A stretch of DNA of 64,000 nucleotides from an uncultured Candidatus Saccharibacteria bacterium (GCA_964633325.1 CAZWFS010000005.1:3313-67312); one strand, 5' to 3'; numbered from the stretch's first letter, positions 949 through 44,120 are shown. The notes: generated by a model from the sequence alone, not told the origin. Numbers and translations: made by a program.

Positions 949-1304
949 TTGATTTCCTTTCCACTGCTTTTGAAAATACGGGTCTTATTACCTTTGGTGT
1001 CTAACTTATATCCAATTTTAGTCGGCTTAATCTTGTTAGCAGGATCGACAATGCCGACTTTAGATACCCAAATAGGTTTGTTTAACTCTACAATGTCTCC
1101 TTGCGGATGTTGCCGATTTGGCTTCACGTGCTTTTTAACTATATTGATACCCTCTACTGTTACCTTATTCATTACGGGATGGGTAGCTGTTACCTTGCCA
1201 GTTTTGCCCTTGTATTTTCCGGACCGCACCATAACAAAATCACCTTTTTTGAGTGCAATCTTGTATGGCTTAGTGCCAAATCTTAATACTTTGCTAGTTG
1301 TCAT
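945..1304 (-). CDS. rplX: 50S ribosomal protein L24
   Basis: KOW motif [18 protein letters not shown]. 4-nt overlaps with L14 and L5. Confidence 0.9.
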
Positions 1305-1669
1305 AGGACCTCCGGTGCCAGGCTGATGATTTTACCATATCCAAGATCACGCAGTTCACGGGGGACTGGACCAAAAATGCGAGTAGCTTTCGGGAGCTTA
1401 TCATCTCCAATAATTACAGCTGCATTTTCGTCAAAACGAATAGTTGAGCCATCTTTGCGTTTTATAGCGTAAGTGGTACGCACCACTACTGCGCGGACAA
1501 CGGATTTGCGCTTTACGCCCCCACTTGGGTTAGCCTGCTTAACCGTTGCTACAATGGTATCCCCTACGCGCGCATAGCGTCTCCCAGTTCCGCCCAATAC
1601 TCTGATACATAGGATTTCCTTGGCACCGCTATTATCACAGACAGCTAGTCTTGATTCTTGTTGAATCAT
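1301..1669 (-). CDS. rplN: 50S ribosomal protein L14
   Basis: [18 protein letters not shown] is the near-universal L14 N-terminus. Confidence 0.97.
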
Positions 1670-1986
1670 GGTTTTTCCTTGTCGGTAGCTTTGTCTTCTT
1701 CTGGTTCTGGTTGTGGTTCGTCAGCCAGGGTTTCCATTTCCCGAATCGCCGGCTTTTGGATTATCTTGTCTAGCGTGAATCGTTTTCGGGCGCTTAGCGG
1801 CCTTGTCTCGGTAATCACCACTTTATCACCCACCTCGGCTTCGTTATTCTCATCATGGGCCATAAACTTGGTGGAAACATGATACTGCTTCTTATAGATA
1901 GGATGCGTCTTTGAAGTCAGCACTGTCACAATGATTGTCTTATCTGGTTTGTCAGATGAAACCGTACCTATTAATGTTTTTCCCAT
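1666..1986 (-). CDS. rpsQ: 30S ribosomal protein S17
   Basis: [16 protein letters not shown] and [18 protein letters not shown] core. Carries an acidic C-terminal tail of about 25 aa. Confidence 0.9.
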
Positions 1987-2186
1987 CAGATGTTCTCCTT
2001 AGCGAATTGTTCGCTTAGCGCAGTAAGCATTCTGGCTAAATCTTTCCGTTTGCTGCGCAAAACCCGTACATTTTGCACTTCTCCGCTGTGTAGGCGTCGC
2101 CTAAGTTCCGTGATCTCTTCCCGGAGTTTAGTACTTTCAGAAGCTAATTCGCTGGTGGGCAGTTTGCGCATGTCGGCAATTTTCAT
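1986..2186 (-). CDS. rpmC: 50S ribosomal protein L29
   Basis: 66-aa helical protein (ITELRRRL) lying between L16 and S17. Confidence 0.85.
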   Translation of the reverse strand: MKIADMRKLPTSELASESTKLREEITELRRRLHSGEVQNVRVLRSKRKDLARMLTALSEQFAKENI

Positions 2187-3233: not shown

Positions 3234-3619
3234 TATTTAGCTCCCTCAGGTGCTTTTTCTGAAGCGGTCTGCTTCTTAGTGGCACGTTGTTCACCATCTA
3301 CTATCACTCTTATGTGGGAAGTGCGGCGCTGGAATGGCAGTGCTCGGCCATGGGCGGCTGGACGATAGCGCTTCAGGCTGGGACCAGGGGTGACACTTAT
3401 TTCAGTGATTGTTAGGCTGTCCGGCTTGAAGTTGTGGTTATAATCGGCATTAGCCCTGGCTGACTGGATGACTTTCTGGACAGGCAACGCGGCGCGGCGC
3501 GGCGTGTGCTCCAGAATCGTCAGGGCGTCAGACACAGTGCGGCCGCGCACTAGGCTTACTACGGCACCGATTTTCCGTGGGGACATCCTGACCCCTTTGG
3601 CGATAGCTTTGACGCTCAT
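3233..3619 (-). CDS. rplV: 50S ribosomal protein L22
   Basis: AKGVRMSPRKIGAVVSLVRGRTVSDAL motif, with a charged C-terminal tail. Confidence 0.93.
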   Translation of the reverse strand: MSVKAIAKGVRMSPRKIGAVVSLVRGRTVSDALTILEHTPRRAALPVQKVIQSARANADYNHNFKPDSLTITEISVTPGPSLKRYRPAAHGRALPFQRRTSHIRVIVDGEQRATKKQTASEKAPEGAK

Positions 3620-3894
3620 TATTTACCTCCCTTGGCCAGTTTGCCGCCATGGGAGCGGAATTTACGTGTAGGCGAGAACTCGCCCAGCTTATGTCCCACC
3701 ATATTCTCGGTGATAAATACCGGCACATGAATCTTGCCGTTATGCACGGCAATAGTTCGCCCAACGAATTCAGGTGGTATAGAAGAAGCCCGCGCCCAAG
3801 TCTTGATGATGGTGCGGTCTTCATTCCCCAAAGCCGCAACTTTTTTAGCAAGCTTAGGATCCACGAACGGCCCTTTCTTCAGTGATCTAGACAT
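3619..3894 (-). CDS. rpsS: 30S ribosomal protein S19
   Basis: [12 protein letters not shown] and [25 protein letters not shown]. Confidence 0.97.
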
Positions 3895-4153
3895 TGTCGC
3901 CTCTAACTTGTTCCATGATAATACGTGATAGGTGAAACACGGTTCTTACATCGGGAGATGCTTCTTCGTACGGAGTAATAAGCCAAGTGTCTGGTTCTGC
4001 CGGAGATATTAATGCCCTAGTGTATACTACTGCTTCTTGAAAACCCAAAGGTAGCGGAATGTCCCTTTCTCGGCATTCTTCTACAAACCTTTCGTAAAAG
4101 GTTTGTAGTTGTACAAGGTCAAGCTCCATTTCCATATTACGTACATCGCTCAT
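3887..4153 (-). CDS. Hypothetical 88-aa acidic protein inserted between rplB and rpsS
   Basis: The ORF fills the rplB-rpsS gap exactly. Its ATG is 3 nt after the rplB stop and its TAG overlaps the rpsS start by 8 nt. I recognise no family. My hand count gives about 43% GC. Confidence 0.6.
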
Positions 4154-7832: not shown

Positions 7833-9017
7833 TTATTTTACAATCTTCGTTACTACTCCGGCACCAACAGTGCGGCCGCCCTCGCGGATGGCAAAGCGCA
7901 GGCCTTGTTCCATGGCGATTGGAGCAAGCAACTTAACCTTAAATGTAATGGTGTCACCGGGCATGACCATTTCCTTGTCGGCTGGAAGTTCGACTTCTCC
8001 AGTTACATCGGTTGTGCGGAAGTAAAACTGCGGCTTGTAACCTTTAAAGAATGGGGTATGACGACCGCCTTCTTCCTTGGTCAAGATGTAGACTTCAGAG
8101 TCAAATTCGGTGTGAGGAGTGATTGACCCAGGCTTGGCCAGTACTTGACCGCGCTCAATGTCATCGCGCTCAATACCGCGAAGTAGTATGCCTACGTTAT
8201 CACCAGCTTGTCCTTGGTCAAGGTTCTTTTTGAACATCTCCACACCAGTTACAACTGATTTGCGGGTATCGCGGACACCTACGATTTCGACTTCTTCGTT
8301 CACTTTTACTACACCCGTCTCAACACGGCCGGTCGCTACGGTGCCGCGACCTTTTATAGAGAACACGTCCTCTATGGCCATCATAAATGGTTTGTCCAGG
8401 TCACGCTTAGGCTCCGGAAGGTAGTCGTCCATGGCTTTGACCAGTTCCATAATTGCGTCTTCGTTGGCGCTGTCGCCTTCCAGCGCTTTGGTGGCGCTGC
8501 CTTTGACAATAGGCGCGTTTTCATCAAATTCGTATTTGCCTAACAACTCGCGAATGTCCATTTCTACTAGTTCTACCAGCTCCGGGTCGGCCAGGTCCAT
8601 TTTGTTCATGAAAACAAGAATTGAAGGCACGCCCACTTGCTTTGCTAGAAGTACGTGTTCGCGGGTTTGGGGCATTGGGCCGTCGGCGGCCGATACTACC
8701 AAGATAGCACCATCAATCTGTGCGGCACCGGTAATCATGTTTTTAACGTAGTCAGCATGCCCAGGCATGTCTACATGAGCGTAATGGCGCTTTTCGCTTT
8801 CGTATTCCTGGTGTGATGTGGCGATTGTAATACCCCGAGCCTTTTCCTCGGGAGCCTTATCGATTTCGTCATACTTGACTGCTTTGTTCACGCTGCTGGG
8901 TAGTCGCTTGGATAAGACAGCGGTAATTGCTGCAGTAAGCGTGGTTTTACCGTGGTCCACGTGTCCCATAGTGCCGACATTTACATGCGGTTTACTCCGG
9001 TCAAACTGTTCTGCCAT
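7833..9017 (-). CDS. tuf: Elongation factor Tu
   Basis: [17 protein letters not shown] and NKMD GTPase motifs. SD TAAGGAG lies upstream. Confidence 0.99.
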
Positions 9018-9128: not shown

Positions 9129-10694
9129 CTATTTAGAAGCGTTTTGGCGGATTTGTTCATGTAATTTATCTATAAAATATTCGCTTGCCAATGGATTGCG
9201 TTTTTCTATCCTATATTCATAGTAGGGATATAGCTTGTCTAGCTCGTCCTTTTTGTTCACTACACCAATCCTATTAATACTCCGTAAAATTTCCCCTTTT
9301 AAATTATTGGCCCAACCTGGTATTACTTCCCTTAGGGCATCCCCCTTATACATACGGCGCTGGGCTATGCCCATAATTGCGGAAATAGTCCATGCCTGCA
9401 TACGTTCCGGCCTATTGGTGCTGTGGATAGTAATGACGTCTTTTCCTTTCTTGGTGCTCTCAGGCCCAAGCAATACACGACCTTTTCCATCTACGTAAAC
9501 GAATTCAAAATATGATCCGCCCTGGTTAGCTACATTAACTATACGGTTTTCAAGTTCTACTGCTAATTCATCAAGGTACTGGCGATGTAAACCTCGCGCA
9601 ATTGCGAAAGTCTCCTTGGGCCACGTAACGAACGATCCATGATAATCCCAAAAAGGGACTAAATCCTGGTGCCGTAACGCCCTGCTGCGTACACCGGCAT
9701 CGGTTAGGAAATCCTGGCTAAAAATATGCCTTACTATTCCGCACGTATAACGGGATCGTTCGTTCTCATTCAAAGAGTCAAATATTGTTGAATCCAACAA
9801 GGCTGCGGCGTTAGCGGTTATAGTTTTAACTAGTCGGGGTTTTCCACCAGGGTCGCAATCCAAGCCAAGCGCGAAATATTCTTCATCTTCCAGCCATAAA
9901 TCATTCAACACTCGCCGTTGCACCTGAAAGGCTAGCTTACGAAGCTGCTTAGATTTTTTGGGCAGGAATTCGGCGGCAAGCTGTAAACTGTCATATACAA
10001 GCCCCTGAACTTCCACGGACACTACATCCTGTTTATGGTCTACACCTTGGCCGTTTTCGTGAATATAGAATTCTACGGAATCTTTCCAAGCTTGGTTCTG
10101 GATACCCCAGGGATTTAGTGCCCGATAGCCGAGAAGTCCGCTTTTAGATACTTGAAGTTTTTTTATTAACCAGTTAATGGCTTCTTCTAAGGCCTTCTTC
10201 ATGGTCACCACACTACCATCAGTTCGCTGGACTCTTTTTCTCAATAACTTATGGTTATGAAGGTGGCAGTATCGACACAGGACTCGGATAAACAACGGTG
10301 TGGAATCTATAGAACCATAGTAAATCATCTCCTTGCTATCACCGCCCCACTTCCGTGAAATTTCTTCGTAAAGCAGCTTTGTCGCACCCTCTCTGGGAAC
10401 GCCATCTATAAGATTGGTAGAGTACTGGTGCATGATTTTGCCTGGTTCTTCCTCGCTGAACATTTCGGTTTTCACGCCCTGGAAGCCAGCTAATATAATT
10501 AGGATTTGTTCTACAAGTTCCGGTTTGATTTCAAGCAAGTCTTCGGCGACCACCAATGAATCACGTCCAAATACAGAACCGTTAAACAGTACGTCAGCAC
10601 TGGCGTAAATTCCTTTTCCAGTCTTAGATGTCACATTGGCAAGGGCTTGTTCGGGTGTTGTTAAACCTTCTGCCACAAAATCTTGAATTACCAT
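9129..10694 (-). CDS. Amylo-alpha-1,6-glucosidase (GDE_C)-like (alpha/alpha)6 glycoside hydrolase
   Basis: The FGRDSLVVAEDLL and EEPGKIMHQY motifs resemble archaeal/bacterial glycogen-debranching-type enzymes. 521 aa. Assigned from memory of the family, not from a search. Confidence 0.55.
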   Translation of the reverse strand: MVIQDFVAEGLTTPEQALANVTSKTGKGIYASADVLFNGSVFGRDSLVVAEDLLEIKPELVEQILIILAGFQGVKTEMFSEEEPGKIMHQYSTNLIDGVPREGATKLLYEEISRKWGGDSKEMIYYGSIDSTPLFIRVLCRYCHLHNHKLLRKRVQRTDGSVVTMKKALEEAINWLIKKLQVSKSGLLGYRALNPWGIQNQAWKDSVEFYIHENGQGVDHKQDVVSVEVQGLVYDSLQLAAEFLPKKSKQLRKLAFQVQRRVLNDLWLEDEEYFALGLDCDPGGKPRLVKTITANAAALLDSTIFDSLNENERSRYTCGIVRHIFSQDFLTDAGVRSRALRHQDLVPFWDYHGSFVTWPKETFAIARGLHRQYLDELAVELENRIVNVANQGGSYFEFVYVDGKGRVLLGPESTKKGKDVITIHSTNRPERMQAWTISAIMGIAQRRMYKGDALREVIPGWANNLKGEILRSINRIGVVNKKDELDKLYPYYEYRIEKRNPLASEYFIDKLHEQIRQNASK

Positions 10695-10772: not shown

Positions 10773-12857
10773 TTATTTCGAGGTTTTGGCTATGATGGCT
10801 TCGGTGACATTGGAAGGAACGTCAGCGTAATGGTCAAGTTCCATTGTAGAGCTGGCGCGCCCTTGGGTCATGCTGCGGAGGTTTGTGGTATATCCGAACA
10901 TTTCGCCAAGCGGCACAAAGGCTGTGATAACCTTGATTCCCATACGGTCGTCCATTGATTCCACCCTGCCACGTTTGCTGTTTAGATCACCGATGACGTC
11001 ACCCATATTTTCCTCGGGTGTCACTACTTCCACCTTCATTACGGGCTCTAAAAGGACTGGATTAGCCTTTTTGACCCCTTCTTGCAGTGCCATGCTAGCA
11101 GCGATCTTGAAGGCCATTTCGCTACTGTCAACGTCATGATAGCTGCCGTCGTATAGTTCGGCTTTGATATCCACTACCGGATATCCGGCTAGAACCCCAT
11201 TGTTCATGGCCTCTTTGATGCCCTGCTCTACGGGTTTAATGTATTCGGAAGGGACCACACCGCCTTTGATGGAGTTAATAAATTCGAACCCTTTGCCCTG
11301 TTCGTTCTGGCTAAGTCGCAACCATACATGTCCGTACTGGCCCCTACCGCCCGATTGCCGGATGAATTTGCCTTCTACCTCTACCGCATCTTTTCGTATA
11401 GTTTCTCGGTAAGCGACCTGAGGCTGGCCGATATTTGCTTCCACCGTGAATTCTCGTTTCATACGGTCAACGATTATTTCCAAGTGAAGTTCACCCATGC
11501 CAGATATGATTGTCTGGCCAGTCTCGTCATCCACCCTTATGCGAAAAGTAGGATCTTCTTCTGCTAGTCTTTGCAGCGCTATACCCATTTTTTCTTGGTC
11601 AGCCTTAGTCTTTGGCTCGATAGCTATACTCACAGGAGGTTCTGGGAAAGTAATACTTTCCATGGCGATGGGGTGAGCTGGATCGCACAGGGTATGGCCT
11701 GTAGTTGTCCCTTTCAAGCCCACGACAGCGGCTATGTCACCAGCCGAGACTTCCGTAACATCCTCTCGCTTGTCGGCTTGCATCCGGACAATACGGCCGA
11801 CTCGTTCTTTTTCTCCAGTGCTGGCGTTTAATATGTAGCTTCCAGCTAGTAATTTGCCAGAGTAAATTCGGACGAAACAAAGCTTACCAACAAACGGGTC
11901 AGTGGCGATTTTGAAAGCCAAGCCAGCTAATGGTTCACTGTCCTGCGGCTTACGCTCTATCTCTTCGCCTGTCTTAGGGTTAGTACCCCAGACAGATCCT
12001 TTTTCCATAGGTGAAGGCAGAAAGTCATTTACGGCATCTAGTATTTTCTCTACTATCACTCCGCGGCCATCACCGCCCGATACAGCAAAGAATTGTCCCG
12101 ATAGTACGGCTGCCCTTATGGCATGTTTTACCTCGTCTACTGTTAGGGAATCCTCGCCTTCTTCCAGGTATTTCTCTAGTAACGTGTCATCGTATTCAAC
12201 TGCCGCTTCGAGCAACAACGCCCGATAGCGCAGAGCTTTTTCTTTCATGTCTTCCGGGACTTCGCCTTCTATAAGCTCTTTGTCTGTAAAGTCTTTATAG
12301 GTGTAAGACTTCATAGTTATAAGGTCTACAACACCATTGATGGCCTGCTCAAAACCAATTGGCAAATGTATGGGTAGGGCCCGCTTGTTCAGCCGCGCAT
12401 GGATGCTGTCTAGTGATTTATAAAAGTCACCGCCAGTTTGGTTAATTTTATTGATAAAACAGATCCGAGGCACCCCGTATTTGTCGGCCTGGCGCCAAAC
12501 GGTCTCGCTCTGCGACTCCACTCCCATTTTGCCATCAAAGACTGTAACAGCACCATCCAACACCCTTAGGCTTCGCTCAACCTCAACCGTAAAGTCAATG
12601 TGGCCCGGCGTATCGATGATGTTAATTTTGTGCTCTTTCCAGTAGCACGTAACAGCCGCGGATGTAATGGTAATACCTCGCTCACGTTCCTGGGCCATCC
12701 AGTCAGTAGTGGTCTCTCCCTCGTGTACCGCCCCAATCTTGTGCTTCAATCCAGTTCGGAACAGGATTCCTTCAGTAGCGGTAGTCTTCCCCGCATCAAT
12801 ATGAGCAATAATCCCAATATTACGAACTTTGCCCAACGGTACTTTTTTATCAGCCAT
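10773..12857 (-). CDS. fusA: Elongation factor G
   Basis: AHIDAGKTT and DTPGHIDF motifs; 694 aa. SD AAGGTAGGTGA lies upstream. Confidence 0.99.
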
Positions 12858-21893: not shown

Positions 21894-22661
21894 CTATATA
21901 GACCCCGATGGAAAATCTTCAATATCCACCTGGGTCGGGGAGAAAAACTTTTCTTGTCCATATCTTAACTCCTTCAATTTGCCATGCGAGCTCCGCCATT
22001 TGTAAACGAGCTGTGCGTACAGAGTACTCCGGGGTGGTATATGTCTATTGTCTTCATTATCTTCAAAACGTCGGGTTGCGATTTTAGCAAGGCCGCTCCC
22101 ACCGATTGCCCTATGAATATATCCCGGCGAGTCCACCGGTTCAATGGTCCATGGGCGTCGATCACAGTACGCCTCACTTTGAACTTTATTAACCAAAGCT
22201 TTATAAGCAGACGCCACTGTAGATTCCGGAGATTGAGTTAATGTGTTTAGATTTGGAGGGTAGCCATCTGTCCAGGCAAGCAAATTATGTGTAGCATATG
22301 GATAATCAACCCTGGTCCAACCCAAATAGCGGCCAATCCGCTCATGCTTAGGTATCCCAGCCGGCAACGGTAGACGCATGTTGCCTAGCGGAAGTCCCGG
22401 ATAAATTGTAGCTAAACCGATTACTTCGTCTTTTTCAGTTTCATCTATTACGGCGAATGTCTCTGGTTGATGCTTTTCATGGTTAATTTTTAAAGCCTCA
22501 ACCGATCTAACCGCATCATCTCCCGATCCTCCATAGCGTTGAGTTGGCCCCACGATATGTCTCTGTAATAGCAGACCACTATTATCACTTATCAGCGCAC
22601 GCAATCGGTCGACAAGATAGGCCGTGCCAAACTCGGTAACCGGTACTAGTATGTCGTTCAT
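21894..22661 (-). CDS. Hypothetical 255-aa protein (possible GNAT-like fold, weak)
   Basis: Full-length ORF with a TGATATAAT -10 upstream. FAVIDETEKDEVIGLATIYP and IHRAIGGSGLAKIA loosely resemble acetyltransferase beta4/motif A. Confidence 0.5.
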   Translation of the reverse strand: MNDILVPVTEFGTAYLVDRLRALISDNSGLLLQRHIVGPTQRYGGSGDDAVRSVEALKINHEKHQPETFAVIDETEKDEVIGLATIYPGLPLGNMRLPLPAGIPKHERIGRYLGWTRVDYPYATHNLLAWTDGYPPNLNTLTQSPESTVASAYKALVNKVQSEAYCDRRPWTIEPVDSPGYIHRAIGGSGLAKIATRRFEDNEDNRHIPPRSTLYAQLVYKWRSSHGKLKELRYGQEKFFSPTQVDIEDFPSGSI

Positions 22662-22785: not shown

Positions 22786-23400
22786 TTAGCTTTTTGGGTG
22801 GATAGGGTTGGTAATGACGGCGTCTACTAAGCCGTATTTTTTGGCTTCTTCGGCTGTCATCCAGAGGTCGCGTTCCATGTCATTATGGATTTTTTCTGGC
22901 TTCTGGCCGGTGTTCTTGGCCATAACGTGTTCCAGTAACTTCTTAACTCGCAGGGCTTCCTTTAGGTCGATCTCTTGGTCGGTAACTTTACCCCGCGTGC
23001 CACTGGAGGGCTGGTGAATCATAACCGCGGCATGCGGTAGCAAAAAGCGTTTTCCCTTAGCTCCCGAGCTAAGCAAAAAAGCAGCTGCCGAGGCTTGAAT
23101 GCCTATACCCACGGTCTGTACATCGCTCTTCACGTACTGCATGGTGTCATAAATGGCCAAAGCGTCATACACGCTGCCACCAGGACTGTTTATGTATAAG
23201 TAAATATCTTTTGTCGAACTATCGTTGTCCAGGAAGAGTAACTGAGCCACAACCAGGTTAGCGGTATGCTCGTTAACATCATTGCCTAGGAAGATAATCC
23301 GGTCCTTAAGCAGCCGGCTATAAATATCATAGGCCCGCTCAACCCGCCCATCATTCTCTATAACAGTAGGTATTAATACCTGACTCTTCAAATCACCCAT
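22786..23400 (-). CDS. clpP: ATP-dependent Clp protease proteolytic subunit
   Basis: [14 protein letters not shown] (catalytic Ser) and MIHQPSSG (His). I moved the start to Met9 (23400), because the track start would lie inside the promoter/CIRCE. Confidence 0.95.
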
Positions 23401-23406
23401 AAATCG

Positions 23407-23435
23407 ATCATATAAAATTAGCACTCGGAAGTCAA
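23407..23435 (-). promoter_or_regulatory. clpP promoter (leaderless geometry)
   Basis: Gene strand reads TTGACT (23435..23430), a 17-nt spacer, TATGAT (23412..23407), a 6-nt spacer, then ATG at 23400. Confidence 0.5.
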
Positions 23436-23444
23436 GAGTGCCAA
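23418..23444. promoter_or_regulatory. CIRCE-type inverted repeat (HrcA operator) at clpP
   Basis: TTAGCACTC-GGAAGTCAA-GAGTGCCAA matches 17/18 of the consensus TTAGCACTC-N9-GAGTGCTAA. It covers the -35 and the spacer. Confidence 0.6.
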
Positions 23445-23505
23445 TCCAAATGTTCTATAGGGGTGCTTGTATGCGACTAGCCTGGCATTTCTTTCCGAAG
23501 CCCAG

Positions 23506-23535
23506 AGCTAGTTGTAGCTATAGCTACTACTAGCT
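23506..23535. repeat. 30-bp near-perfect palindrome
   Basis: AGCTAGTTGTAGCTA|TAGCTACTACTAGCT: 14 of 15 mirrored positions pair, with one T:T mismatch. The core GTAGCTATAGCTAC is perfect. Confidence 0.8.
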
Positions 23536-23614
23536 GGACTGGAGGAAAAAATATCGAGATAGGCGTATGCAAACAGGCCTAGCGATAATCTGGCGTTGGT
23601 ATTCTTGGCTTAGG

Positions 23615-24013
23615 TCAAGAGTGCGTGTCTCTGTCTTTCCTTCTTGAAAAGGTCGTGTCCAGTTGGACCTCTTGCGAGCGCTGGGATCGTCGTAATCGAA
23701 ATAGAATTATTCTTTCTAGCCATGGGTATGCACTAATTCGAGCTTGTTTTTCTCTTATCTGCCCTGGTGTCATTTCATGTCTTAACATTGCGTTAGCAAG
23801 TCGTTGAGAAAGTTCCCATTTACGATCACCTGCCGCATAATCAAACCAAGTTCTCATTTCTGCTGTTCGTCCGGGCAAAGTATCAGATAGTTCTAATCCG
23901 AATGAGGTAGGCGGCAGAGGCGTGTCAAAAGGAATAGTAGGAGCTACGTCAGTAGGCGGACGCATTAGCTCCTTATATAAAGTCAGATCTATTTCTGGGT
24001 GACTATCTGTCAT
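23615..24013 (-). CDS. Hypothetical 132-aa protein between tig and clpP
   Basis: Intact ORF with a TATAAT-like element upstream. No family recognised. Confidence 0.45.
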   Translation of the reverse strand: MTDSHPEIDLTLYKELMRPPTDVAPTIPFDTPLPPTSFGLELSDTLPGRTAEMRTWFDYAAGDRKWELSQRLANAMLRHEMTPGQIREKQARISAYPWLERIILFRLRRSQRSQEVQLDTTFSRRKDRDTHS

Positions 24014-41546: not shown

Positions 41547-44033
41547 CTACTCCTGGTCCGTAGAGTAAACCAAATCTTTATTCTTAGCCGCAACTTGCAA
41601 TATATCGCCCTTACCAAAGTGGTTGTCTAGTAACTCCAATGCAACATGGTCTTCGATAGTATCTTGTAGTAACCTGCGCATAGGTCTCACCCCGTTATGG
41701 GCGTCGTAGCCGTTCTCCAGCAAATGCTGCTTTGCGGAGCTGCTAACCTCCAAACCAAGCCCATGCTTCACTAAACGCTGGCGCAGCTCGTTGATCTGTA
41801 GGTCTAATATCTTTAATACGTCTTTTTTGGTGAGGGCCCTGAATACAATGACCTTGTCTATTCGGTTAAGCAGCTCCGGTCGCATCATACGTTTCAGCTC
41901 CTCCAGGACCTTATCCTTATTGGCAGAGTGAAGTGCATCCAAATCCTTAAGCTCGCCGGGCCTTACAGCATGAAAACCGAAGTTGGCCTCCTTTTGTAAT
42001 TTCTCGGCACCAATATTGCTGGTCATGATGATTATAGTGTTGGTAAAATCAACCTTTCTGCCTTTGGTATCAGTAAGGACTCCGTCTTCTAATATTTGGA
42101 GTAACATATTAAATACTTCCGGATGTGCCTTTTCTATCTCATCGAATAGTACCAGACTGTATGGCTGTCGTCGGACCCTATCCGTAAGCTGACCGCCATC
42201 ATCATAGCCCACATATCCGGCCGGAGCGCCAATTAAACGCGACACAGTATGTCTTTCACTCATTTCGCTCATATCGATCTTGATAAGCGCATCACTGCTG
42301 CCAAAGAATTCCCGAGCAAGCACACGTGCTAATTCCGTTTTTCCCACCCCAGTAGGTCCTAGAAATATAAATGAACCTATAGGCCTTTGTCCGCCACTGA
42401 CACCGGAACGATTACGACGAACTGCCTTAGCAACGGCTGCCACAGATTCGCTCTGACCTATGACGTACTTACCAAGCTGTTTTTCTAAATTGAGCAGGTA
42501 TTTGGCCTCGGATCGTATAACTTTGCGGACAGGTACACCTGTCATGCGGGCGACTACTTCTGCGACATCATTACTAGTCATCACTAGTTTATCTGCTGGT
42601 TTGATTTCAGCCTGAAGCTTCTTTAGATTTTCACTGATCTGGCTAGCCTTGGTTTTCATCAGCGCGGCTTTTTCATAATTTTCGGTCTCAACGGCATCTT
42701 CAATCCGTGAGTTCATGAGTTTTAACTCGTTTTGAAGCTTGCGTACTTCGGGTGGTGTCTTACCCCTATCAACCCTTAGATGCGCGGCCGTCTCGTCCAT
42801 AAGATCGATGGCCTTATCCGGCATAAATCGGTCATTTAAATAGCGTTTTGCCAAGTTAACAGTGTCTTCGAGCACGTCGTCACCGACTTTTACCCCATGG
42901 AATGCTTCATAGTGCTTACGTAAGCCTTTAAGTATAGCCAGAGTCTCGGTAATTGTAGCCTCTGGCACCTGAATAGGTTGGAATCTTCTTTCTAGCGCGG
43001 CATCTTTTTCTATATGCTTTGTGTATTCGGTGGTGGTGGTCGCGCCAATGACTTGAATTTTACCGCGCGCCAAAGCTGGCTTAAGAATATTTCCGGCGTC
43101 CATAGCACCTTCCGCCGCGCCGGCGCCTACTATCAGGTGTAGCTCATCAATGAAGACTATAGACTTTTTATCGTTTTCCAGCTCAGTTATGACTTTCTTA
43201 AGCCGTTCTTCGAACTCACCTCGATATTTTGTGCCCGCAATCATACCAGCCAAATCAAGCATGATGATCCGCTTATCAAGCAAGCTGTCTGGTACATCCT
43301 CAGAAACTATTCGTTGCGCCAGCCCCTCTACGATTGCCGTTTTTCCAACTCCGGGTTCTCCAATCAGAACAGCATTATTCTTGGTACGTCGGTTAAGTAT
43401 AGTTACTACACGTCTTATCTGAGCTTCACGTCCAACTACCGGATCCAGCTTTCCTTCCCTAGCTTGTCCTGTTATGTCTGTGCCAAAGAAATCCAAGGCA
43501 GTTTTACGCTGCTTCTTGGCGCTCTTACGTCGATTTTCGGCCGTCGGCTCGCCACTGGTATCCTCATATTGCTGACGATTTAAAAATTGCTCCAGTTCAG
43601 TAATTAATTGATCTACGTCGACATTCATGTCCCTGAGTAAAATGGTTGCCCGGGCATTCTTTTGGCTAAGGATACTATAAAGTATGTGCTCTGTTCCGCA
43701 GAATTCTTGATTGAAGTCTTGAGCCACGTCGTACGCCATCTTCAACGTCAGCTTAGCTGTCTCACTTAAACCTTTATCGCCAAGATTGATAACTAATGTC
43801 TTAGGTGTAAGATTAAGTGCCAAGCGCGCCCGGTCAAGCGTAACACCTACGCCCTCAAGCAACTTTGCGCCCATACTACCTTCTTGGGCCAACACACCTA
43901 ATAGCAGATGCTCGGTACCGATGTACGCGCTTCCGAGCCCGCGAGCAATTGCGTTAGCTTGTTTCAGCCCCTGCAAAGCATTATCAGTCAGATGGTTTAA
44001 GAACTCTTGAAAATCAGGTGAATTTGGGATCAT
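41547..44033 (-). CDS. clpC: ATP-dependent Clp protease ATP-binding subunit ClpC
   Basis: Double Clp_N repeat, Walker A GEPGVGKT and GPTGVGKT, and a short UVR-like linker ([15 protein letters not shown]). Start moved to ATG 44033, 8 nt after a GGGGTGG SD. Confidence 0.92.
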
Positions 44034-44083: not shown

Positions 44084-44111
44084 ATTGTACCATTTAGCAC
44101 TCAAGCGTCAA
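44084..44111 (-). promoter_or_regulatory. clpC promoter
   Basis: Gene strand reads TTGACG (44111..44106), a 16-nt spacer, then TACAAT (44089..44084). A leader of about 45 nt with an SD follows. Confidence 0.5.
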
Positions 44112-44120
44112 GAGTGCCAA
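44094..44120. promoter_or_regulatory. CIRCE-type inverted repeat (HrcA operator) at clpC
   Basis: TTAGCACTC-AAGCGTCAA-GAGTGCCAA. The arms are identical to the clpP copy and match 17/18 of the consensus. It covers the -35 and the spacer. Confidence 0.6.

Follow-up and report, generated by a model that had tools for sequence, protein, structure and literature searches.

The heat-shock repressor HrcA acts through an operator, CIRCE, an inverted repeat that controls the expression of chaperones, and groESL is its only constant target, with dnaK operons and occasional extra genes besides (PMC545781). Here we describe two CIRCE elements in a 64,000-nucleotide stretch of DNA from an uncultured Candidatus Saccharibacteria bacterium (GCA_964633325.1 CAZWFS010000005.1:3313-67312, below called the window), one lying on the promoter of clpP and the other on the promoter of a gene for a ClpC-type ATPase. 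From the comparisons presented below we consider it highly probable that both of them (23418-23444 and 44094-44120) are functional HrcA operators which repress clpP and clpC. A literature search for HrcA or CIRCE in Saccharibacteria or Patescibacteria yielded no relevant paper. Since a known operator and a known repressor occur at new targets (clpP together with clpC, apparently without CtsR) in a little-studied phylum, we read the finding as a lineage-specific extension of the HrcA regulon.

The system shares with classical HrcA/CIRCE regulation the operator sequence, the 9-nt spacer and, in the lineage, a putatively autoregulated repressor of the HrcA family and the operator-bearing genes dnaK, dnaJ and groES. 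It differs in that the targets of Saccharibacteria take in clpP and the ClpC-type gene as well (and clpB and hsp20 in relatives), genes which in Bacillus fall under CtsR or other classes, and in that the operator covers the -35 element and the promoter spacer, whereas the operator of B. subtilis lies downstream of the promoter. Moreover, several regulon mRNAs of Saccharibacteria look leaderless, and their HrcA is about 100 residues shorter.

In Mycoplasma pneumoniae, HrcA controls lon, clpB, pepA and pip, and a CIRCE is located between tig and lon (PMC7737663). The Mollicutes regulon (M. pneumoniae and M. genitalium: dnaK, dnaJ, groESL, clpB, lon, pepA and pip) resembles that of Saccharibacteria in that HrcA, in a reduced genome, reaches an ATP-dependent protease and clpB, and the order tig-CIRCE-lon there corresponds to tig-CIRCE-clpP in the window. 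The protease differs, being Lon in Mycoplasma (which is not known to have ClpP) and ClpCP in Saccharibacteria; the Mycoplasma regulon was tested experimentally, whereas the one described here is known from sequence. The two groups belong to different phyla, and the extension of HrcA control to proteases in Saccharibacteria was probably independent of that in Mollicutes.

The CtsR regulon of Firmicutes and the ClgR regulon of Actinobacteria likewise place clpP and clpC under one stress-responsive transcription factor. Unlike HrcA, a repressor, ClgR is an activator. The clpP gene of Streptococcus salivarius is reportedly preceded by a CIRCE and under HrcA control. PMC3842655 cites a reference (Chastanet & Msadek 2003, J Bacteriol 185:683) that counts this gene among a class of stress genes under dual control by CtsR and HrcA, and clpL of Lactobacillus gasseri has also been reported as HrcA-regulated (PMC3192767). 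CtsR is thus a co-regulator in S. salivarius, whereas at the CtsR-box-free clpP and clpC promoters of the window HrcA appears to act alone.

CIRCE elements on the clpP and clpC promoters

The interval 23407-23444 runs from the -10 element of clpP through the far CIRCE arm, and the operator proper, 23418-23444, reads TTAGCACTC-GGAAGTCAA-GAGTGCCAA on the + strand. It agrees with the consensus TTAGCACTC-N9-GAGTGCTAA at 17 of 18 positions (1 mismatch) and has a spacer of exactly 9 nt, as an earlier reading of the window, made from the sequence alone (the sequence-only reading), had claimed. On the clpP gene (-) strand the region reads TTGGCACTC-TTGACTTCC-GAGTGCTAA-TTTTA-TATGAT-CGATTT-ATG, in which CGATTT separates the -10 element from the ATG at 23400-23398 and the promoter-proximal CIRCE arm takes up the first half of the spacer between -35 and -10. 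The same reading had placed a -35 element, TTGACT, inside the CIRCE spacer, 17 nt from a TATGAT that lies 6 nt before the clpP ATG, and an independent consensus promoter scan selected the identical pair (TTGACT-17-TATGAT, 10/12). When the window was searched for CIRCE with up to 3 mismatches and compared with dinucleotide-preserving shuffles, 2 matches were found, each with a single mismatch, against 0.06 expected; two matches arose in 1 of 100 shuffles, at the looser threshold of 3 mismatches.

The second match, which the sequence-only reading did not contain, lies on the + strand at 44094-44120 and reads TTAGCACTC-AAGCGTCAA-GAGTGCCAA (17/18, 9-nt spacer). On the gene strand it is TTGGCACTC-TTGACGCTT-GAGTGCTAA, with the -35 element TTGACG in the loop; behind the extended -10 element comes a leader of some 44 nt, in which the Shine-Dalgarno sequence is AGGGGTGG. 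At both predicted clp promoters, and at the other regulon promoters described below, the operator overlaps the -35 element and the upstream half of the promoter spacer, and the -10 elements are found 16-19 nt from TTGAC. A spacer of 9 nt is common to both window sites and to all related sites listed except one, under a scan that permitted 5-13 nt.

The gene behind the first operator encodes ClpP (PF00574, E=2e-77; NF001368, 291 bits against a cutoff of 249), and its closest homologues carry the names Candidatus Saccharimonadales, Saccharibacteria or Patescibacteria; the genome is one of Saccharimonadales (TM7/CPR). The N-termini of relatives (MSNTKSQILIPTVIE, MSKLTSQILVPTVIE) back the ATG at 23400 as the start. 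Start sites called mechanically can fall elsewhere: in the window a GTG at 23424, inside the operator, was taken as the clpP start, and at loci L208/L209 the gene caller likewise set the start inside the operator (L numbers denote loci compared with the window). Because only 6 nt lie between the -10 element and the ATG, a leaderless clpP mRNA is predicted. The same distance of 6-7 nt from the end of the -10 element to the start codon is seen at clpP (window, L002, L004), hrcA (L085, L091, L112, L141) and clpC (L095, L155), and judging from these promoters the mRNAs of clpP, hrcA and some clpC genes of Saccharibacteria are probably leaderless. Gene callers misplace some starts in Saccharibacteria, and both points bear on annotation.

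The gene behind the second operator (41547-44033) encodes an ATPase of 828 aa with the Pfam domains Clp_N (two copies), AAA, AAA_lid_9, AAA_2 and ClpB_D2-small. The ClpB model aligns to it in two stretches and skips profile positions ~450-531, that is, about 80 positions of the middle domain. After SNIG it carries FGF (residues 685-687 of the segment 672-687), at the position of the ClpP-docking loop in ClpC, ClpA and ClpX; its relatives have LGF or FGF at this place, and the motif is missing from a ClpB-like paralogue (L116). The protein therefore has two AAA+ rings, repeated Clp_N domains and a shortened middle domain, together with a loop of the type hydrophobic-Gly-Phe/Leu, on account of which we read it as the ClpC-type partner of ClpP; the assignment is one of domains and motifs, as NCBIfam has no ClpC-specific model. 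Orthologous CIRCE elements are present at no fewer than seven clpC-type loci (Table 1), all of them with the synteny nusA-clpC-hypothetical gene-radA. With one operator at clpP and its twin at clpC, both halves of ClpCP would be targeted.

Conservation of the clpP operator

The clpP loci were gathered by ClpP similarity alone and comprised the window, five metagenome loci with 75-85% ClpP identity (L002, L003, L004, L006, L007) and five loci from assemblies (L202, L206, L208, L210, L212); the sample is thus unbiased as to the operator. A further metagenome locus, L005, was left out as it has only 44 nt upstream of clpP. A CIRCE with 0-2 mismatches was present 18-110 nt before clpP in 11/11 of these promoters, and TTGAC was found in every 9-nt spacer. 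When the sequences were aligned on the operator, the arms were nearly invariant and the third position alone wobbled, A/G on one side being mirrored by T/C on the other, while the 60 nt upstream contained no conserved column. As a control, the 74 clpP loci from other phyla that the same scan returned were examined; at none of them was a CIRCE with at most 2 mismatches present within about 4 kb, or anywhere in the sequence of up to 8.5 kb.

The synteny (hisS)-tig-clpP-rpoB was common to all Saccharibacteria clpP loci compared, and it recurred at four further clpP sites among the matches listed by a pattern scan (L084, L152, L182, L201). The sequence-only reading had taken the repeat for an HrcA operator whose geometry would allow a bound repressor to occlude the promoter; the comparative evidence supports this view and strengthens it.

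The predicted HrcA regulon in related genomes

A genome collection was scanned with the pattern GCACTC-N0-4-TTGAC-N0-4-GAGTGCYAA, which returned at least 120 loci. In Saccharibacteria the genes behind the sites were hrcA, dnaK, dnaJ, groES, clpC-type genes, a clpB lacking the N-domain, hsp20 and clpP (Table 1), and the identities of DnaK, GroES and ClpB were checked with NCBIfam and Pfam models. The canonical targets, groES/EL and the hrcA-grpE-dnaK region, are thus represented in related Saccharibacteria genomes. The sequence-only reading had proposed that sites at groES and dnaK and the presence of an hrcA gene be looked for in the genome, and the check came out positive in the Saccharibacteria relatives, where hrcA, dnaK and groES all carry CIRCE. 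In the window and about 170 kb of DNA from Saccharibacteria, each CIRCE that had at most 2 mismatches was located directly upstream of one of these genes. One metagenome-assembled genome (MAG), P-B-M_MAG_00013, had CIRCE at hrcA and dnaK (L114) and at clpC (L164), on two contigs. ClpP OGL29375.1 and HrcA OGL34658.1 (RIFCSP MAG series) were not taken as products of one MAG, the accession numbers being too far apart.

Tandem CIRCE elements, about 45-49 nt apart, usually precede dnaK; the first has the -35 element in its loop, and the second, downstream of it, is probably in the leader. In the complete Saccharibacteria chromosome OX335598.1 (L132), dnaJ lies downstream of dnaK at 963-2076 (-) and is split into two overlapping open reading frames (ORFs), which reflects either a frameshift or a sequencing error; this dnaJ has its own CIRCE at 2097-2123.

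Among the matches listed, the same operator was found at hrcA, dnaK or clpB in Moraniibacteriota, Paceibacterota, Falkowbacteria, Komeilibacteria and Wildermuthbacteria. The sequence-only reading had given CIRCE in front of clpB and lon as known mainly from Mollicutes; this does not hold, because CIRCE also precedes clpB or clpC in Lachnospiraceae, Fervidobacterium, Raoultibacter and other phyla of the Candidate Phyla Radiation (CPR). The matches listed further include clpB or clpC in a Tenericutes MAG and htpG and hsp20 in Clostridia. A -35 element in the CIRCE loop is not unique to the lineage either, as the groES sites of Streptomyces have it as well. Outside CPR, we also observed the operator within the promoter of a gene for an rpoH-like sigma factor (L140, Polynucleobacter) and of htpG (L171, L172: Acetatifactor, Oscillospiraceae), and 170 nt before a topoisomerase-I-like gene (L113, Oscillospiraceae). 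These would be further lineage-specific extensions of the HrcA regulon, with gene identities read by eye from the N-terminal sequences.

The short form of HrcA

The HrcA of Saccharibacteria was recognised by TIGR00331 (E=3e-51) and by PF01628 and PF03444, with the Pfam gathering scores passed, and at no fewer than eight loci hrcA stands directly behind its own CIRCE (Table 1); the L195 protein closely resembles that of L091. HrcA is abundant and conserved in the order. The best 120 database homologues have 81-100% identity and a length of 231-252 aa, and those with names are assigned to Saccharibacteria, Saccharimonadales or Patescibacteria. By its sequence, the repressor of the lineage is a member of the HrcA family in an atypical short form. 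In a PDB sequence search only the winged helix of the short HrcA aligned (1STZ, E=3e-17), and an AlphaFold2 model built with 20 close homologues was poor past the winged helix (mean predicted local distance difference test score 49, predicted template modelling score 0.38). A literature search on an HrcA "dimerizing domain" found nothing.

A short HrcA of the CPR type (230-245 aa) was also observed behind a CIRCE with TTGAC in the loop at L083 (labelled Bdellovibrionales), at L096 and L138 (both labelled Gammaproteobacteria) and at L111. The taxonomic labels of these loci may be wrong, or the short HrcA may be distributed more widely than CPR.

Proposed mechanism and alternative explanations

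In a model that was established in B. subtilis and has been applied to Mycoplasma and Chlamydia (PMC7737663, PMC8762339, PMC12154930), the activity of HrcA depends on GroEL. In Saccharibacteria, an HrcA dimer on the clpP operator, which overlaps a promoter of the sigma-70 type, would, at normal temperature, exclude RNA polymerase and keep the output of clpP, probably a leaderless mRNA, low. If the analogy to Bacillus, Chlamydia and Mycoplasma holds, unfolded proteins would draw GroEL off HrcA, which would become inactive and let the promoter open. The twin operator, which lies 20 kb away on the promoter of the ClpC-type unfoldase, would act in the same way, and the subunits of ClpCP would be co-regulated. 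The HrcA regulon of Saccharimonadales would then consist of hrcA, dnaK, dnaJ, groES(L), clpB, hsp20, clpC and clpP, covering both the folding and the degradation arm. The predicted transcription start is downstream of the operator, which would therefore act on the DNA only and not as an element of the mRNA. We infer HrcA binding and repression, their dependence on heat or GroEL, and a leaderless start; that hrcA is present in this genome is taken from the relatives, because the window has none.

Several observations weigh against this interpretation. The HrcA of the lineage reaches 175 bits with TIGR00331, short of the equivalog cutoff of 197, and matches the model in two stretches, a shortfall that follows from an internal deletion of about 100 residues: in an alignment, the HrcAs of CPR and Saccharibacteria (219-245 aa) lack one contiguous block of this size that is present in the HrcAs of Streptomyces and Lachnospira, which are 340-357 aa long. 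The homodimer of chlamydial HrcA makes contacts at residues 152-230 (PMC12154930, preprint), and the deleted block appears to overlap roughly with this interface, the correspondence being approximate. The genes hrcA, groES/EL and dnaK are not in the 64-kb window. The pattern scan was biased toward sites with TTGAC in the spacer, and the regulon is a composite of many MAGs and not the census of one genome. Moreover, a literature search returned no data from any Saccharibacterium on HrcA binding, on heat induction of clpP or on transcription starts.

Alternatively, a regulator other than HrcA, or HrcA with a second factor, might recognise the repeat; the likeness to CIRCE would then be convergent or inherited, and HrcA would not control the clp genes. 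In favour of this, the HrcA of the lineage is truncated and has lost the segment that bears the canonical dimer interface; in addition, the promoter -35 element sits in the loop at all sites of the lineage, and this HrcA-independent constraint could add to the conservation. We regard this as very improbable, because the arms, and not TTGAC alone, are nearly invariant and share 16-18 of the 18 positions with the pan-bacterial consensus of CIRCE, because the same element precedes hrcA, dnaK and groES, the classical autoregulated HrcA set, and because the winged helix of the short HrcA is well conserved. CtsR in particular is no likely candidate. Its heptad repeat RGTCAAANANRGTCAAA, the mark of the class III heat-shock genes and of the CtsR regulon, is found at neither the clpP nor the clpC promoter, and the 10 matches in the window at 3 mismatches (6.7 expected) correspond to the chance rate, with 0 in a promoter; control of clpP and clpC by CtsR was therefore rejected. 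The repeat could also work mainly at the level of RNA, as a stem-loop (9-bp stem, TTTTAT) that ends read-through transcripts of tig and the ORF downstream of it, as a weak terminator or stabiliser. The gene strand after the repeat does read TTTTATAT, the repeat is downstream of tig and of an orphan ORF in the same direction, and a larger hairpin stands just upstream; CIRCE elements that are transcribed also influence mRNA stability in other bacteria. Nevertheless, a terminator scan made no call at the site, the loop is 9 nt long, and the T-rich tail is accounted for by the AT-rich promoter spacer and the -10 element. With the -35 element in its loop, the repeat falls outside the clpP transcript, and an identical element precedes hrcA, dnaK, groES and clpC in unrelated upstream contexts. 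An RNA-level role, which would in any case be compatible with that of an operator, thus seems hardly probable as the main one.

The least probable explanation is that the site matches by chance, or is a decaying relic that no longer has a function. Relic or split CIRCE elements do occur close by, at 23614-23624 in the window and as upstream copies in L004, L007 and L212, which means that operators in this region turn over. Against this stand the 2 matches observed where 0.06 were expected, both at clp promoters, the intact copy kept in all 11 orthologous promoters while flanks and neighbouring ORFs change, and the lack of a site at any of the 74 control loci; on this comparison the explanation appears effectively refuted by conservation. 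We retain repression by HrcA as the probable function of both repeats.

It is also possible, though somewhat less probable than not, that an HrcA of about 235 aa without the dimer-interface block of about 100 residues governs the entire proteostasis network as its one master regulator in Saccharibacteria, and perhaps in much of CPR/Patescibacteria, in place of the layers formed by CtsR, ClgR and sigma-32.

Genomic surroundings of clpP

The window has a guanine-plus-cytosine content of 46% and contains a cluster of ribosomal-protein genes, tuf, fusA and rpoBC, followed by clpP, tig, hisS, radA, clpC, nusA, dnaE and gatAB. The coordinates of the features described are collected in Table 1.

Table 1. 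Operators, promoters and genes in the window (upper rows) and CIRCE sites and hrcA genes in related genomes (lower rows, by locus)
Feature	Position or loci	Strand	Basis or remark
CIRCE inverted repeat (probable HrcA operator) on clpP promoter	23418..23444	.	17/18 match, conservation 11/11
clpP -35 TTGACT, within CIRCE spacer	23430..23435	-	sequence and promoter scan
clpP -10 TATGAT, 17 nt from -35, 6 nt before ATG	23407..23412	-	sequence and promoter scan
clpP coding sequence, 204 aa, start ATG at 23400	22786..23400	-	PF00574, NF001368, N-terminus alignment
Second CIRCE, on ClpC-type ATPase promoter	44094..44120	.	1 mismatch; orthologous sites in at least 7 loci
clpC promoter: -35 TTGACG (44111-44106), 16-nt spacer, extended -10 TGgTACAAT (44092-44084)	44084..44111	-	sequence
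ClpC-type double-ring Clp ATPase, 828 aa	41547..44033	-	Pfam domains, ClpB model alignment, FGF motif
Relic half-operator GTCAAGAGTGC, exact 11-nt copy of arm and -35 part of clpP CIRCE	23614..23624	.	no partner arm
Long imperfect hairpin, ~150 nt, between relic half-site and live operator	23445..23600	-	centred 23506-23535
CIRCE before hrcA, at least 8 loci	L091, L112, L114, L120, L132, L141, L193, L195		Saccharibacteria MAGs, first gene behind site
CIRCE before dnaK, at least 10 loci	L088, L091, L112, L114, L132, L141, L176, L186, L188, L196
Tandem CIRCEs before dnaK	L088 171/219; L112 3370/3419; L114 6965/7010; L132 4120/4165; L091 1284/1330
CIRCE before dnaJ, at least 1 locus	L132
CIRCE before groES, at least 2 loci	L124, L133
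CIRCE before clpC-type gene, at least 7 loci	L095, L108, L155, L159, L164, L165, L180
CIRCE before clpB without N-domain, at least 1 locus	L116
CIRCE before hsp20, at least 1 locus	L191
CIRCE before clpP, at least 4 loci	L084, L152, L182, L201
Short hrcA genes, Saccharibacteria and other CPR	L120 3834-4562; L091 3432-4142; L193; L085 5208-5912; L156 943-1602; L200

The sequence-only reading had stated that clpX does not adjoin clpP and that an orphan ORF separates tig from clpP, and we found the same: behind clpP come a 255-aa ORF that matched nothing in Pfam and then rpoB, and the ORF on the tig side (23615-24013, - strand, 132 aa) matched no family in Pfam and had no tblastn match in relatives except in an identical contig. 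In the relatives tig either adjoins clpP or is separated from it by small ORFs: L003 and L202 have none, and those of L206 (1009-1248, 79 aa), L208 (1113-1463, 116 aa) and L210 (1133-1432, 99 aa) are unrelated to the orphan ORF of the window and to one another. On this comparison the gap between tig and clpP is variable, and the orphan ORF may not be a real gene.

The relic half-operator sits 183 nt upstream of the live clpP CIRCE and is probably what is left of an operator that was duplicated or split. The hairpin between the two folds better than chance (z = -3.95; 0/200 shuffles fold as well) and may insulate clpP from tig read-through. L004 (~3370-3560) has a layout of relic and hairpin like that of the window, including a homologous segment, and in L007 (~3850-3950) and L212 (~1380-1450) an insertion of about 90 nt, whose ends are inverted, splits an upstream CIRCE. 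Taken from the sequences, this suggests that the clpP operators in this region were repeatedly duplicated or disrupted and then replaced. An Rfam search of the window found nothing at the clpP operator, its sole match being a tRNA at 27629-27709 (-, 59.5 bits).

Between clpP and rpoB we observed an ORF of 216-259 aa with no Pfam match in the window (21894-22661, -), L202 (10642-11325), L208 (2169-2834) and L212 (2164-2943). This conserved ORF may be co-transcribed with clpP and hence belong to the HrcA-controlled unit. Another ORF with no Pfam match (521 aa, 9129-10694, -) lies between fusA (10773-12857) and tuf (7833-9017) in the otherwise classical str/S10 cluster.

Significance

The logic of HrcA and CIRCE as known is left unchanged by these findings. 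Almost nothing is known about transcriptional regulation in Saccharibacteria and CPR, whose genomes of about 1 Mb encode few regulators, and the present analysis provides a defined and testable regulon with an operator sequence, a promoter architecture and a list of targets. This regulon is conserved across the order, including oral and animal-associated lineages with cultivable relatives. The truncated HrcA raises the questions of how it dimerises and how it senses GroEL.

If the short HrcA were indeed the single master regulator, DnaK/J, GroES/EL, ClpB and Hsp20 would be switched together with ClpCP by operators built into the -35 element and spacer of largely leaderless promoters, proteolytic capacity would be a direct read-out of the GroEL load, and HrcA would need another mode of dimerisation or of GroEL dependence. 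Where regulators are scarce, HrcA appears to take over the ClpCP protease arm of protein quality control, and the operators at clpP and clpC suggest that Saccharibacteria place protein degradation under the switch of the chaperones.

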